The notes under the pieces are model-generated. The model was not told where the DNA came from and did not search any database. It saw only the letters and a list, made by a program, of their open reading frames with translations. From the IMG/VR virus record IMGVR_UViG_2531839585_000015: a DNA stretch of 6,554 nt, one strand, 5' to 3'. The stretch is from a virus (taxonomy: Duplodnaviria > Heunggongvirae > Uroviricota > Caudoviricetes). A program made the translations under genes and the position numbers. Position 1 is the first letter of the stretch, and each line of letters starts with the position of its first letter. Below are positions 2 to 6,554 of the stretch, piece by piece.

Positions 2-1714
2 AAGCTGCCGACGCTGCGCCAGCGCCTGTTCCGCTGCGTGAGTATCCGTGAGAACGACGACGGCACGTATGCCATCACCGCCGTGCAGCATGTACCGGAA
101 AAAGAAGCCATCGTGGATAACGGGGCGCACTTTGACGGCGACCAGAGCGGCACGGTGAATGGTGTCACGCCGCCAGCGGTGCAGCATCTGACCGCAGAAG
201 TCACCGCAGACAGCGGGGAATACCAGGTGCTGGCCCGCTGGGACACGCCGAAGGTGGTGAAGGGCGTGAGCTTCCTGCTTCGCCTGACCGTGGCAGCGGA
301 TGACGGCAGTGAGCGGCTGGTCAGCACAGCCCGGACGGCGGAAACCACATACCGCTTCACACAACTGGCGCTGGGGAACTACAGGCTGACAGTCCGGGCA
401 GTAAATGCGTGGGGGCAGCAGGGCGATCCGGCATCGGTATCGTTCCGGATTGCCGCACCGGCAGCGCCGTCGCAGATTGAGCTGACACCGGGGTATTTTC
501 AGATAACCGCCACGCCGCATCTTGCGGTTTATGATCCGACGGTACAGTTTGAGTTCTGGTTCTCGGAAAAGCGGATTGCGGATATCAGGCAGGTTGAAAC
601 CACAGCCCGCTACCTTGGCACGGGGCTGTACTGGATAGCCGCCAGTATCAATATCAAACCGGGCCATGATTATTACTTTTATATCCGCAGTGTGAACACC
701 GTTGGCAAATCGGCATTCGTGGAGGCCGTCGGTCGGGCGAGCGATGATGCGGAAGGTTACCTGGATTTTTTCAAAGGCAAGATAACCGAATCCCATCTCG
801 GCAAGGAGCTGCTGGAAAAAGTCGAGCTGACGGAGGATAACGCCAGCAGACTGGAGGAGTTTTCGAAAGAGTGGAAGGACGCCAACGATAAGTGGAATGC
901 CATGTGGGCTGTCAAAATTGAGCAGACCAAAGACGGCAAACATTATGTCGCGGGTATTGGCCTCAGCATGGAGGACACGGAAGAAGGCAAGCTGAGCCAG
1001 TTCCTGGTTGCCGCTAACCGTATCGCGTTTATTGATCCGTCTAATGGCAACACAAGACCAATGTTTGTTGGTCAGGGCGATCAGATATTCATGAACGACG
1101 TGTTCCTGAAACGCCTGACGGCTCCGACCATTACCAGCGGCGGTAATCCTCCGGCATTTTCCCTGACACCGGACGGGCGGCTGACGGCGAAAAATGCCGA
1201 TATCAGCGGTAACGTGAATGCGAACTCCGGGACGCTCAACAACGTCACGATTAACGAGAACTGTCGGGTTCTGGGAAAACTGTCCGCCAACCAGATTGAA
1301 GGCGATCTCGTTAAAACAGTGGGCAAAGCTTTCCCCCGGGACTCCCGTGCACCGGAACGGTGGCCATCAGGGACCATCACCGTCAGGGTTTATGACGATC
1401 AGCCGTTTGACCGGCAGATTGTTATTCCGGCGGTGGCATTCAGCGGCGCTAAACATGAGAGGGAGAATAACGATATTTATTCGTCATGCCGCCTGATAGT
1501 ACGGAAAAACGGTGCTGAAATTTATAACCGTACCGCGCTGGATAATACGCTGATTTACAGTGGTGTTATTGATATGCCAGCTGGTCGCGGCCACATGACG
1601 CTGGAGTTTTCGGTGTCATCATGGCTGGTAAATGACTGGTATCCCACAGCAAGTATCAGCGATTTGCTGGTTGTGGTGATGAAGAAAGCCACCGCAGGCA
1701 TCAGTATCAGCTGA
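2..1714 (+). CDS. J: Tail tip / host-specificity protein J, C-terminal ~570 codons; the 5' end lies upstream of the window
   Basis: Frame open from position 2 to TGA at 1712-1714 with no internal stops. The translation ([46 protein letters not shown]...[68 protein letters not shown]...) matches the C-terminal half of phage lambda J as I recall it. The last ~150 residues (from about [13 protein letters not shown]) differ from lambda J. Confidence 0.93.
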
Positions 1715-1733
1715 ATTTTATAACCCATATACG

Positions 1734-1760
1734 GGCGCCAGAAATGGCGCCTTTTTTATT
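1734..1760 (+). terminator. Rho-independent terminator candidate downstream of J
   Basis: Perfect 7-bp stem GGCGCCA (1734-1740) / TGGCGCC (1745-1751) with GAAA tetraloop (1741-1744), followed directly by TTTTTTATT (1752-1760). Begins 20 nt after the J stop codon. Confidence 0.65.
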
Positions 1761-1781: not shown

Positions 1782-2369
1782 ATGCGTAAAGTTTGTGCAG
1801 CCATTTTGTCCGCAGCCATCTGTCTGGCCGTATCCGGTGCGCCTGCATGGGCGTCTGAGCAGCAGGCCACACTGAGCGCAGGGTATCTTCATGCCCGTAC
1901 GAACGCTCCCGGCAGCGATAATCTGAACGGGATTAACGTGAAATACCGTTATGAGTTTACGGACACGCTGGGGCTGATTACGTCATTCAGTTATGCCAAC
2001 GCTGAAGATGAGCAAAAAACGCATACAGCGATACCCGCTGGCATGAGATTCCGTGCGTAACCGCTGGTTCAGCGTGATGGCGGGCCGTCTGTCGCGTGAA
2101 TGAATGGTTCAGCGCGTATGCGATGGCGGGTGTGGCTTACAGCCGTGTGTCGACTTTCTCCGGGGATTATCTCGTACGACAAAGGGGAAAAGCACGATGT
2201 GCTGACCGGAAGTGATGACGGTCGCCACAGCAACACGTCTCTGGCGTGGGGGGCTGGCGTGCAGTTTAACCCGACCGAATCCGTGGCCATTGATATTGCT
2301 TATGAAGGCTCCGGCAGTGGTGACTGGCGCACTGACGGTTTCATCGTGGGTGTTGGTTATAAATTCTGA
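1782..2369 (+). pseudogene. lom: lom (Lom/Ail/PagC-family 8-strand beta-barrel outer-membrane protein), frame-disrupted as sequenced
   Basis: ATG at 1782 opens a typical signal peptide (MRKVCAAILSAAICLAVSGAPAWA) and Lom-like N-terminus (GINVKYRYEFTD...). Frame 0 hits TAA at 2058-2060. The Lom-like reading continues in another frame (VRNRWFSVMAG, 2053-2085), then another (NEWFSAYAMAGVAYSRVSTFSGDYL, 2099-2172), and returns to frame 0 for the C-terminus (HDVLTGSDDGRHSNTSLAWGAGVQFNPTESVAIDIAYEGSGSGDWRTDGFIVGVGYKF, stop TGA 2367-2369). Total span is 196 codons, the size of an intact Lom. At least 3-4 single-base frame changes fall between about 2020 and 2180. Confidence 0.85.
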
Positions 2370-2422: not shown

Positions 2423-2433
2423 GTGGGGTGAAT

Positions 2434-3247
2434 ATGGCAGTAAAGATTTCAGGTGTACTGAAAGACGGCACAGGAAAACCGGTACAGAACTGCACAATCC
2501 AGCTGAAAGCAAAACGTAACAGCACCACGGTGGTGGTGAACACGCTGGCCTCAGAAAATCCGGATGAAGCCGGGCGTTACAGCATGGACGTTGAGTACGG
2601 CAGTACAGCGTTATTCTGTTGGTGGAGGTTCCCGCCGTCACATGCCGGGACCATCACGTGTATGAAGATTCACCGGTACGCTGAATGATTTTCTCGGTGC
2701 CATGACGGAGGATGATGCCGTCCGAGGCACTGCGCCGTTTGACTGATGGTGGAAGAGGTGGCGCGTAACGCGTCCGGGTGGCACAGAACACGGCAGCCGC
2801 AAGAAGTCAGCCAGGATGCCGCACATCGCCGTGAGGCGGCAACCCATGCGACTGATGCTCAGGCTCAGCACGGCAGCCAGCACTCAGCCGGCAGGCCGCG
2901 CGTCGGCTCAGTCAGCTCTTCCAGCGCAGGAACGGCATCAACAAAGCCTGAAGCATCAAAAGTGCTGCGCTGCAGAGTCCTCAAAAAGCGCGGCGCTACC
3001 AGTGCCGTGCGGCGAAAACGTCAGAAACGAATGCGCAGCGTCACAAAATCGCAGCCACTTCTGCATCCCCGCGACCACGAAGCGTCAGAAGCGCCACCTC
3101 AGCCCGGGATGCGGCGGCCTCAAAAGAGGCAGCGAAATCATCAGAAACGAACGCATCATCAAGCGCCAGTAGTGCCGCTTCCTCGGCAACGGCGGCAGGA
3201 ATTCCGCGAAGGCGGCAAAAACGTCGAGACAACGCCAGGTCTTCTGA
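2434..3247 (+). pseudogene. stf: Side tail fibre gene stf, 5' portion (tail-attachment domain and start of the Ala/Ser/Thr-rich region), multiply frame-disrupted as sequenced
   Basis: ATG at 2434 is preceded by GGGGTG. MAVKISGVLKDGTGKPVQNCTIQLKAKRNSTTVVVNTLASENPDEAGRYSMDVEYG is the lambda Stf / Rac StfR N-terminus as I recall it. After about 2600 the Stf-like reading hops between frames: PPSHAGTIT in frame 1 (2626-2658), YEDSP in frame 0 (2661-2675), TLNDFLGAMTEDDA in frame 2 (2678-2719), MVEEVARNAS in frame 1 (2746-2775), [36 protein letters not shown] in frame 0 (about 3087-3197). The first stop in the start frame is TGA at 2686-2688. Each frame alternates between Ala/Ser/Thr-rich (expected) and Arg/Gln/Pro/His-rich (shifted) stretches. 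Confidence 0.8.
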
Positions 3248-3760
3248 AACGGCAGCGGGACAGAGCGCCTCGCTGCGGCAGGCTCAAAAACAGCGGCTGC
3301 GTCGTCTGCCAGTGCCGCGTCAACAAGTGCCGGGCAGGCCTCAGCCAGTGCCACCGCCGCCGGAAAATCGGCAGAAAGTGCCGCATCGTCTGCTTCAACA
3401 GCCACAACGAAGGCTGGCGAAGCCACTGAACAGGCCAGCGCAGCAGCGAGGTCTGCTTCCGCAGCGAAGACATCCGAAACGAACGCGAAAGCGTCGGAAA
3501 CCAGCGCAGAATCCTCAAAAACGGCTGCCGCATCGTCAGCCAGTTCGGCGGCGTCATCGGCATCATCGGCGTCTGCTTCAAAAGATGAGGCGACCATACA
3601 GGCGTCAGCAGCGAAGGGCAGCGCCACGACGGCATCCACGAAGGCGACAGAGGCTGCTGGTAGTGCGACGGCAGCAGCTCAGAGCAAAAGTACGGCGGAA
3701 TCTGCAGCAACGCGCGCTGAGACAGCGGCAAAACGGGCAGAGGATATTGCATCCGCCGTG
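2850..3760 (+). repeat. Low-complexity, internally repetitive GC-rich segment encoding the Ala/Ser/Thr/Glu/Lys-rich linker of Stf
   Basis: Recurrent imperfect nucleotide motifs encoding (A)KTSETNA / SSETNA, for example 3015-3034, 3138-3158, 3471-3489. Dominated by GCN, TCN and ACN codons. It produces long spurious ORFs in the alternate + frame and on the - strand. Confidence 0.6.
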
Positions 3761-5791
3761 GCGCTTGAGGATGCGAGCACGACGAAAAAGGGGATAGTAC
3801 AGCTCAGTAGTGCGACTAACAGCACGTCTGAAACGCTGGCGGCAACGCCAAAGGCAGTAAAATCAGCCTATGACAATGCAGAGAAACGTCTGCAGAAAGA
3901 CCAGAACGGCGCTGATATACCCGATAAGGGACGCTTCCTGAACAACATTAACGCGGTCAGTAAAACAGACTTTGCTGATAAGCGTGGTATGCGTTATGTG
4001 CGGGTTAACGCTCCTGCAGGTGCAACATCTGGAAAATATTACCCTGTTGTTGTTATGCGTTCTGCTGGCTCAGTAAGCGAACTGGCATCAAGGGTCATTA
4101 TCACCACGGCAACGCGAACCGCAGGCGATCCGATGAATAACTGCGAGTTTAACGGATTTGTTATGCCTGGTGGCTGGACTGACAGGGGGCGTTATGCTTA
4201 TGGAATGTTCTGGCAATATCAAAACAATGAACGAGCCATCCACTCAATAATGATGAGTAATAAGGGCGATGATTTGCGCTCTGTGTTCTATGTTGATGGC
4301 GCTGCTTTCCCTGTTTTTGCGTTTATCGAAGATGGCCTGTCAATATCCGCACCTGGTGCTGATCTCGTTGTTAATGATACGACCTATAAGTTTGGGGCAA
4401 CAAATCCGGCGACTGAATGTATCGCGGCGGACGTTATCCTTGATTTTAAGAGTGGGCGTGGTTTTTATGAGTCTCATTCGTTAATCGTTAACGATAACTT
4501 GTCGTGCAAAAAACTTTTTGCCACAGACGAAATTGTAGCGCGTGGTGGTAATCAGATTCGAATGATAGGTGGGGAGTATGGGGCATTATGGCGTAATGAT
4601 GGCGCTAAAACTTACCTGCTGCTTACCAATCAAGGTGATGTTTATGGTGGCTGGAATACATTAAGACCGTTTGCTATTGATAACGCAACCGGCGAACTGG
4701 TTATTGGAACCAAACTGTCCGCAAGTCTGAACGGTAATGCATTAACAGCAACAAAGCTGCAAACGCCAAGACGGGTTTCTGGTGTTGAGTTTGATGGTTC
4801 CAAAGATATTACTTTAACCGCCGCGCATGTGGCTGCTTTTGCCAGAAGGGCAACGGATACATATGCCGATGCGGATGGTGGCGTTCCCTGGAATGCCGAA
4901 TCAGGCGCTTATAATGTCACCCGCTCTGGCGACAGCTATATTCTGGTTAACTTCTATACCGGAGTCGGAAGTTGCCGGACCTTGCAGATGAAGGCGCATT
5001 ACAGAAATGGTGGTCTGTTCTACCGTTCTTCAAGAGACGGTTATGGTTTTGAGGAAGACTGGGCAGAAGTTTATACCTCGAAAAATCTTCCACCAGAAAG
5101 CTACCCAGTCGGCGCACCAATCCCGTGGCCATCAGATACCGTTCCGTCTGGTTATGCCCTGATGCAGGGGCAGACTTTTGACAAATCTGCCTACCCGAAA
5201 CTTGCAGCCGCTTATCCGTCAGGCGTGATCCCTGATATGCGTGGCTGGACGATTAAGGGCAAGCCCGCCAGTGGTCGTGCCGTATTGTCTCAGGAACAGG
5301 ACGGCATAAAATCGCATACCCACAGCGCCAGCGCATCCAGTACTGATTTGGGGACGAAAACCACATCGTCGTTTGATTACGGCACTAAATCCACGAATAA
5401 CACTGGTGCGCATACCCATAGTTTAAGTGGCAGCACGAATGCAGCTGGTAATCACAGCCATAGAGATGGCCGTCGATTTAACCCCAGTGTTTTTAAAGAT
5501 ACTTATCAATATGGTTATACAAGCTCAGGTCAAAATACCTGGGGTGTACAAGGCTCAGTAGGTATGTCTACGGGGGCGTTAGCTAATACCAGTACAGATG
5601 GTAACCATAGCCACTCACTGTCCGGCACAGCAGCATCTGCAGGTGCACACGCACATACTGTCGGTATTGGTGCACACACGCACTCCGTTGCGATTGGTTC
5701 ACATGGACACACCATCACCGTTAACGCTGCTGGTAACGCGGAAAACACCGTCAAAAACATCGCATTTAACTATATTGTGAGGCTTGCATAA
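3248..5791 (+). CDS. stf: Side tail fibre protein Stf, uninterrupted 3' portion (847 codons: rest of the Ala/Ser/Thr-rich linker, a central shaft module, and a His-rich lambda-type distal tip)
   Basis: Frame 2 is open from 3248 to TAA at 5789-5791. The ORF track starts it at GTG 3758 only because no start codon occurs earlier in this Ala/Ser/Thr-rich stretch. The C-terminus ([76 protein letters not shown]...[31 protein letters not shown]) matches the lambda Stf / T4 gp37-type tip as I recall it. The whole ORF resembles E. coli Rac StfR from memory; this is not verified by search. Confidence 0.9.
5777..5782 (+). promoter_or_regulatory. Shine-Dalgarno sequence for tfa, inside the 3' end of stf
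   Basis: GTGAGG lies 8 nt upstream of the tfa ATG at 5791-5793. The stf stop and tfa start overlap as TAATG. Confidence 0.5.
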
Positions 5792-6432
5792 TGGCATTCA
5801 GAATGAGTGAACAACCACGGACCATAAAAATTTATAATCTGCTGGCCGGAACTAATGAATTTATTGGTGAAGGTGACGCATATATTCCGCCTCATACAGG
5901 TCTGCCAGCAAACAGTACCGATATTGCACCGCCAGATATTCCGGCTGGCTTCGTGGCTGTTTTCAACAGTGATGAGGCATCGTGGCATCTCGTTGAAGAC
6001 CATCGGGGAAAAACGGTTTATGACGTGGCTTCCGGCGACGCGTTATTTATTTCTGAACTTGGCTCGTTACCGGAAAATGTCACCTGGTTATCGCCGGAAG
6101 GGGAATATCAGAAGTGGAACGGCACAGCCTGGGTGAAGGATACGGAAGCAGAAAAACTGTTCCGGATCCGGGAGGCGGAAGAAACAAAAAACAGCCTGAT
6201 GCAGGTAGCCAGTGAGCATATAGCGCCACTTCAGGATGCTGTAGATCTGGAGATCGCAACGGAGGAAGAAACCTCATTGCTGGAAGCCTGGAAAAAATAT
6301 CGGGTGTTGCTGAACCGTGTTAATACAACAACTGCACCGGATATTGAATGGCCAACAGTACCCATACACAATGTAAGCGAAAAAGAAAAACCGCAGACAC
6401 GACGTATGCAGGACGTGCTGCGGTTTGGCTAG
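5791..6432 (+). CDS. tfa: Tail fibre assembly protein Tfa (chaperone for Stf), 213 aa
   Basis: Intact ORF from ATG 5791 to TAG 6430-6432. The translation [91 protein letters not shown]... is nearly identical over most of its length to lambda Tfa as I recall it, but with a different, longer C-terminal end. Position directly after stf is the canonical arrangement. Confidence 0.95.
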
Positions 6433-6554
6433 TAAACTTTTGATAGTGCGAGTATTGAATGATTTCCAGCCCATTACTCATTTTACGCTTTTCACGCGCA
6501 AGAGAAATTGAACTTTATTCCTCTGTCACCACATGACGGGGATTAACATTCTGG

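Follow-up and report, generated by a model that had tools for sequence, protein, structure and literature searches.

We found that the J gene in this 6554-nt stretch of lambdoid prophage DNA (hereafter the window) ends in an intact, swapped-in receptor-binding module, and that the divergence of its tip from that of lambda is not a product of decay. Its sequence places the tip in the 1A2/VT1-Sakai allele class, and by analogy with 1A2 we consider it probable (roughly 0.7) that the window J tip uses OmpC rather than LamB. The estimate was set no higher than this because receptor choice is labile in the J family. Among J tips in E. coli this allele class is the most frequent, and that of lambda is a rare outlier.

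Gene content of the window

The window covers the distal tail region, with the gene order J-lom-stf-tfa as in lambda, an order which is also common to many E. coli prophages. Its colinear best matches were 96–97% identical to it, and it is not lambda itself. The 3′ part of J, the gene for the tip attachment or central tail fibre protein, occupies positions 2..1714 of the plus strand as an uninterrupted frame of 570 codons and a stop, equivalent to residues 562–1132 of lambda J; the 5′ end of the gene, encoding the N-terminal baseplate hub domains (lambda 1–561), lies outside the window. Full-length homologues with an identical 3′ end are 1131–1159 amino acids long. Using phmmer against the lambda J structure (PDB 8iyk), query residues 1–569 aligned end to end with residues 562–1131 of chain J (E = 0).

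Four Pfam domains were identified in J, all on the plus strand, all far above their cutoffs and in the canonical order: Ig_J, the first Ig-like/FNIII domain (PF24421, E = 4.5e−42), at 146..460 (amino acids 49–153); Ig_J_second, the second Ig-like/FNIII domain (PF24489, E = 1.2e−40), at 464..772 (amino acids 155–257); Phage_Tail_Tip, comprising the helical shaft and beta-prism of the central fibre (PF09327, E = 2e−33), at 851..1234 (amino acids 284–411); and Ig_GpJ_C (PF12421, 134 bits against a cutoff of 26.2) at 1319..1711 (residues 440–570). The preliminary description of this DNA had taken the C-terminal domain of J to be the module which decides receptor choice, and it does correspond to a full Ig_GpJ_C receptor-binding domain.

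Downstream of J are a lom homologue (1782..2369, plus strand), the frame of which is broken by small deletions, the long side-tail-fibre gene stf (about 2428–5791) and the tail-fibre assembly gene tfa (5791–6432), the product of which matched Caudo_TAP in Pfam. A terminator-like hairpin with a T-run lies directly 3′ of J (1733..1760, plus strand) and another follows lom (2396–2417); both are GC-rich, and phages 21 and 434 have terminators annotated at the same places.

When the window was compared to two intact E. coli homologues, 36 small deletions (1–8 nt) and no insertions were found at 2023–2172 and 2600–3271, lom having five and the 5′ third of stf 31, so that both frames are broken. In the same comparison no small deletions were present in J (1–1714) or at 3272–6358. 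A tight cluster consisting of deletions only looks like low-quality sequence rather than natural decay, and a 51-mer spanning three of the stf deletions had no exact match in genome_contigs. It may nevertheless represent true pseudogenisation of lom and stf; with both genes frame-broken in the window, the prophage may not make infectious particles.

Close to its 3′ end, the tfa gene contains a 1-nt insertion at 6359 relative to its homologues, by which the normal stop is lost and the ORF becomes 213 rather than 194 amino acids long. Two colinear homologues, YF-1 and PEC301, showed no alignment to the last ~110–130 nt of the window (6427–6554). Most other E. coli genomes matched the window in two separate pieces over ~8.3 kb, with pinQ and tfaQ annotated, a pattern suggesting that these genomes carry either a tail-fibre segment that can invert or an insertion 3′ of tfa.

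Divergence of the J tip from lambda

We compared the J fragment with lambda J at both the protein and the DNA level. In the protein alignment, residues 1–417 of the fragment had 18 mismatches to lambda (4.3%; 95.7% identity), whereas the last 153 residues had 85 (55.6%; ~44% identity; Fisher P = 1e−40). The maximum-likelihood breakpoint in the DNA alignment fell at nt 1238, the mismatch rate rising from 6.6% before it to 44.7% after it (P = 2e−70), and blastn homology to lambda stopped at nt 1264, placing the left recombination junction versus lambda at 1238..1264 and the diverged specificity module, the receptor-binding domain of J, at 1265..1711 (both plus strand). Megablast of the window against lambda gave no match in the module past nt 1264; megablast homology to phage 434 and its relatives also ended at nt 1264, and that to other phages at 1334–1338.

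The tip was 45.6% identical to lambda over its last 157 amino acids and 43% identical from lambda residue 983 onward, with the core motifs FPR, WPSGT, PFDRQIV, DMPAGRG and KK..GIS conserved between the two. Searched alone, the last 157 residues matched over their whole length both A8 gpJ (9wca, E = 2e−55) and lambda gpJ (8xcj and 8iyk, ~1e−35), and J had zero indels against intact homologues. The preliminary description was thus borne out in its account of this region: it had described most of the fragment as close to lambda J, with divergence from about position 1260 over the last ~150 residues and with PFDRQIV and DMPAGRG retained as anchors. Given the breakpoint at 1238 and the end of blastn homology at 1264, its starting point was accurate, and the high C-terminal identity to lambda J which it had named as evidence against its reading was not seen (43–46%).

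The divergence extends beyond J. DNA homology to lambda was lost over 1265–2241 and returned at 2242, indicating that the receptor-binding domain, the spacer between J and lom and most of lom were replaced as one block. The lom protein of the window was 39% identical to lambda Lom and 63–73% identical to the lom proteins of 2G7b and E. coli 120899. Compared with E. coli 120899, VT1-Sakai and phage 21 as other carriers of its receptor-binding domain, the window was near-identical beyond about nt 1127 but differed at 781–1020, where it resembles lambda and 434. Over nt 721–1020, which encode the helical shaft along with the upper part of the beta-prism (lambda ~800–900), its identity was 95–100% to lambda and 100% to 434, but only 50–78% to those three carriers. 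This stretch is a second exchangeable module inside J, and on this mosaic pattern the window J is built from at least three modules. Modular exchange of the J specificity region has already been published (Maddamsetti et al., bioRxiv 10.1101/242495). We also observed a small divergent island in otherwise conserved surroundings at nt 1021–1080, which had 73–82% DNA identity to every reference compared and where lambda has ANGNETPMFVAQGNQ.

GC composition

The sequence had been described as AT-richer from about 1440 onward. GC content was indeed lower there (0.48 at 1440–1714 compared to 0.571 at 2–1262), but the shift is weak: the 452-nt module as a whole had a GC content of 0.515, within 1 SD of 452-nt windows taken across the whole stretch (mean 0.53, SD 0.053). 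Most of the upstream excess came from nt 1–500 (0.64), with nt 501–1262 at 0.52–0.53, and the divergent module began with 177 nt (1263–1439) at a GC content of 0.571. The preliminary description had proposed a plot of GC content as a means of locating the recombination junction. The drop at ~1440 falls ≈200 nt inside the module and so does not mark the junction. The receptor-binding ends of J in phage 21 (0.469), 434 (0.482), VT1-Sakai (0.504) and 2G7b (0.513) all had a GC content below that of their own upstream J. A GC dip is therefore a general property of the J receptor-binding module, and we rejected the GC shift as a marker of recombination, as it lies inside the module, is within 1 SD and is common to all receptor-domain classes.

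Allele class and prevalence

A tblastn search of the last 157 J residues against 50,697 phage records resolved discrete classes of J tip. The class with at least 91% identity to the window included 2G7b, PhiR47_1, PhiR55_1, PhiR49_2, many Stx1a and Stx2a phages, PPompW prophages and VT1-Sakai of O157:H7. A further class at 61–65% comprised phage 21, 4A7 and BP-4795; the lambda tip was at 46% and phage 434 and its relatives were at 42–44%. Over the domain, identity to the window was 100% for E. coli 120899 gpJ, 96.2% for 2G7b, 95.5% for VT1-Sakai/1A2, 65.4% for phage 21, 61.7% for A8 gpJ, 45.6% for lambda and 41.6% for 434, and several E. coli genomes contained annotated gpJ genes of full length which were 100% identical to the 451-nt module at the DNA level. 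The window tip was near-identical to 1A2/VT1-Sakai across the whole module, with no indels, and was separated from the phage 21 and A8 class both by identity (65.4% and 61.7%) and by two class-separating indels.

We then counted receptor domains in 5426 complete E. coli genomes, taking as a match any hit with at least 80% of the module covered. The window-type domain was found in 3350 of the 5426 genomes, with a median of 2 copies per genome, and the 434-type domain in 2091. The phage 21-type domain was found in about 1089 records, counted at no less than 90% DNA identity. The lambda-type domain was found in just 96 of the 5426 genomes, all at 99% identity or above, and three lambda-type examples among the matches listed were laboratory strains. 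It is on these counts (3350 genomes versus 96) that lambda is the outlier and the window-type allele the common one.

Evidence for the receptor

Brödel et al. (Nature 2024, PMC11338833) replaced lambda J from residue 964 with natural gpJ C-termini. The chimeras were screened on a lamB-deleted recipient, and A8 and 1A2 were found to deliver DNA through OmpC (PMC11338833). Delivery to MG1655 delta-lamB delta-ompC needed plasmid-borne OmpC; A8 accepted the OmpC of both MG1655 and EDL933, whereas 1A2 accepted that of EDL933 and TN03 but not that of MG1655 (K-12), and OmpC is highly polymorphic in E. coli, with 74 variants (PMC11338833). The 1A2 fusion point (lambda 964, nt 1208 of the window) lies just upstream of the natural junction at 1238–1264.

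The DNA sequence of 1A2 is given in Supplementary file 1 of PMC11338833, where it is codon-recoded and carries OCR indels, and we therefore stitched the domain together from tblastn segments. The reconstruction has one unreadable residue, and all seven residues which distinguish 1A2 from the window lie inside intact tblastn segments. The reconstructed domain was the same as the VT1-Sakai J domain at 156 of 156 readable positions. Searching the supplement for DNA strings from the window matched A8 only; 1A2 was missed by this search because of its recoding. A supplement sequence ending in KSTAGISIS was considered as 1A2 and ruled out: it is A8, consistent with PDB 9wca.

The window domain was identical to VT1-Sakai/1A2 at 150 of 157 residues, with 7 differences and no indels. 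In an alignment to J tips of known receptor, as had been suggested for this DNA, the nearest was VT1-Sakai/1A2 (OmpC; 95.5%), and this identity to an OmpC-dependent, LamB-independent tip supports the earlier proposal that the window allele probably recognises a receptor other than LamB. Among isolated phages of the window domain class, the listed propagation hosts were ECOR13 or E. coli C and never K-12, in loose agreement with the failure of 1A2 on K-12 OmpC. Our literature search found no paper on the 9wca/9wcb structure, and the Gifsy-1 and SNIPE papers held no receptor data for the window allele class. In the SNIPE paper, PhiR47.1 and PhiR55.1 had no need for ManYZ.

Differences from 1A2

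The seven differences from 1A2 fall at positions equivalent to lambda 1048, 1050, 1051, 1090, 1101, 1107 and 1130. They comprise, on the plus strand, codons R487, N489 and N490 (K, H and T in 1A2/VT1-Sakai; 1460..1471), which align with lambda 1048, 1050 and 1051; codons R529, S540 and D545 (H, A and N in 1A2; 1586..1636); and codon S568 (T in 1A2; 1703..1705). The residue aligned with lambda 1107 (D) is D545 in the window and N in 1A2, while the 1012-equivalent is P in both. The laboratory shift from LamB to OmpF always requires two positions, of which lambda 1107 is one, and natural variation likewise has a hot spot at this residue (Maddamsetti et al., bioRxiv 10.1101/242495).

Only a few substitutions are needed to change receptor choice in the J family. 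Phage 21 begins as a LamB user and within days acquires first OmpC and then OmpF as receptors (Borin et al., bioRxiv 10.1101/2023.04.13.536812), and the A8 domain is 81.6% identical to that of phage 21 although their receptors differ (OmpC and LamB, respectively). Relative to 1A2, the effect of the seven substitutions is probably to tune the range of OmpC variants that the tip accepts. We suggest only tentatively that the R487/N489/N490/R529/S540/D545/S568 sub-allele is functionally distinct from 1A2, using another set of OmpC variants or a second porin; another set of variants could possibly include K-12-type OmpC. If the sub-allele is indeed distinct, OmpC polymorphism would be directly mirrored by natural sub-allelic variation in the J tip most often found in E. 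coli.

Alternative explanations

Among classical phages whose native receptor has been defined genetically, phage 21 is the closest (65.4%), and it starts on LamB; lambda (45.6%) also uses LamB, and the fold and anchor motifs are shared. It could be argued from this that the tip is still LamB-binding and that its divergence comes from drift, whether antigenic or allelic, or from adapting to variants of LamB. We regard this as quite unlikely, as 1A2 is far closer (95.5%), works without lamB and is OmpC-dependent, and an identity of 65% is not predictive in the J family, given that A8 and phage 21 are 82% identical and have different receptors. It is also unlikely that the seven substitutions have shifted the sub-allele to OmpF, PhoE or another trimeric porin, or to dual-receptor use. 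This explanation draws on the alignment of D545 (N in 1A2) with lambda 1107, a residue on which the OmpF shift depends, and on the evolution of triple-receptor use by phage 21 via about 5–12 J mutations (bioRxiv 10.1101/2023.04.13.536812). However, many E. coli genomes that are unrelated to one another carry the sub-allele at 100% identity, and the Sakai-type sub-allele occurs next to it, a picture which resembles ordinary polymorphism within one class; the polymorphism of OmpC itself (74 variants) would be a simpler reason for sub-allelic variation.

It should also be considered whether the J tip is a non-functional relic in a decaying prophage, in which case its divergence would have no current functional meaning. 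The J frame is open over 570 codons with no indel against intact homologues, the receptor-binding segment is 100% DNA-identical to annotated full-length gpJ genes, and the divergence is common to thousands of intact genes and to the plaque-forming 2G7b, PhiR47_1 and PhiR55_1. What speaks for a relic are the 36 frame-breaking small deletions in lom and the 5′ third of stf, but a cluster made up of deletions alone is more suggestive of poor sequence quality than of decay, and we consider a relic very unlikely.

Proposed mechanism

Our preferred reading is an exchanged tip which binds OmpC. The J C-terminal Ig-like domain is a recombined 1A2/VT1-Sakai-class module on the otherwise lambda-like backbone of trimeric J. 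In the lambda gpJ-LamB structures, four bottom loops of the receptor-binding domain enter the extracellular porin lumen (PMC11101478). By analogy, the bottom loops of the three domains would reach through the extracellular mouth into a trimeric porin, which for the window allele would most likely be OmpC and not LamB. Porin binding would spread the bases of the three receptor-binding domains, new hydrogen bonds would then compact and rotate (twist) the beta-prism, the helical shaft would flip after this rotation, the FNIII strings would dissociate after the shaft flip and the tail tube would open, leading to DNA ejection. We infer this triggering mechanism for the window J from the lambda structures (PMC11101478). 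The J sequence ahead of the receptor-binding domain shows 96% identity to lambda, and its transduction machinery is therefore expected to be that of lambda; only the docking surface of J has been exchanged.

Implications for annotation

The window J can be annotated as having an OmpC-type (1A2/Sakai-class) rather than a LamB-type tip, and lambda is better regarded as an atypical reference for J tips. The allele class of the window has already been exploited as the OmpC-targeting tip of engineered lambda particles (Brödel et al., PMC11338833). It should be noted that the module, its recombination behaviour and the receptor of the 95.5%-identical copy are all already known in the literature, and beyond correct annotation the finding matters little.

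Comparison with known systems

The nearest known system is 1A2/VT1-Sakai (AP000400; the Stx1 prophage of E. coli O157:H7), which has the same domain class, the same module boundary and a lambda-like J backbone; OmpC dependence and OmpC-variant range were measured for 1A2 alone. In the VT1-Sakai record (AP000400, 1–3288), J is split into two overlapping CDSs, both annotated as truncated (“truncated protein by a mutation”), indicating that the prophage with the same tip as 1A2 has a disrupted J.

Lambda gpJ (8xcj, 8xck and 8iyk) has the same Ig_GpJ_C domain, length, position and core motifs as the window, but its tip is only 43–46% identical and its receptor is LamB. A8 (OmpC; 9wca and 9wcb) and phage 21 belong to the same domain family and are nearer to the window than lambda is. 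Both have the N-terminal 17-residue and C-terminal 12-residue stretches of the domain in common with the window and differ from it by a 5-residue insertion after the HE(N/R) loop, a 4-residue deletion and other loop sequences. The J backbone of phage 434 is near-identical to that of the window up to nt 1264 (94.1%), whereas its tip is 41.6% identical with several indels. The receptor of phage 434 J is OmpC, and 434 is likewise a natural case of a lambda-backbone J with a non-LamB tip.
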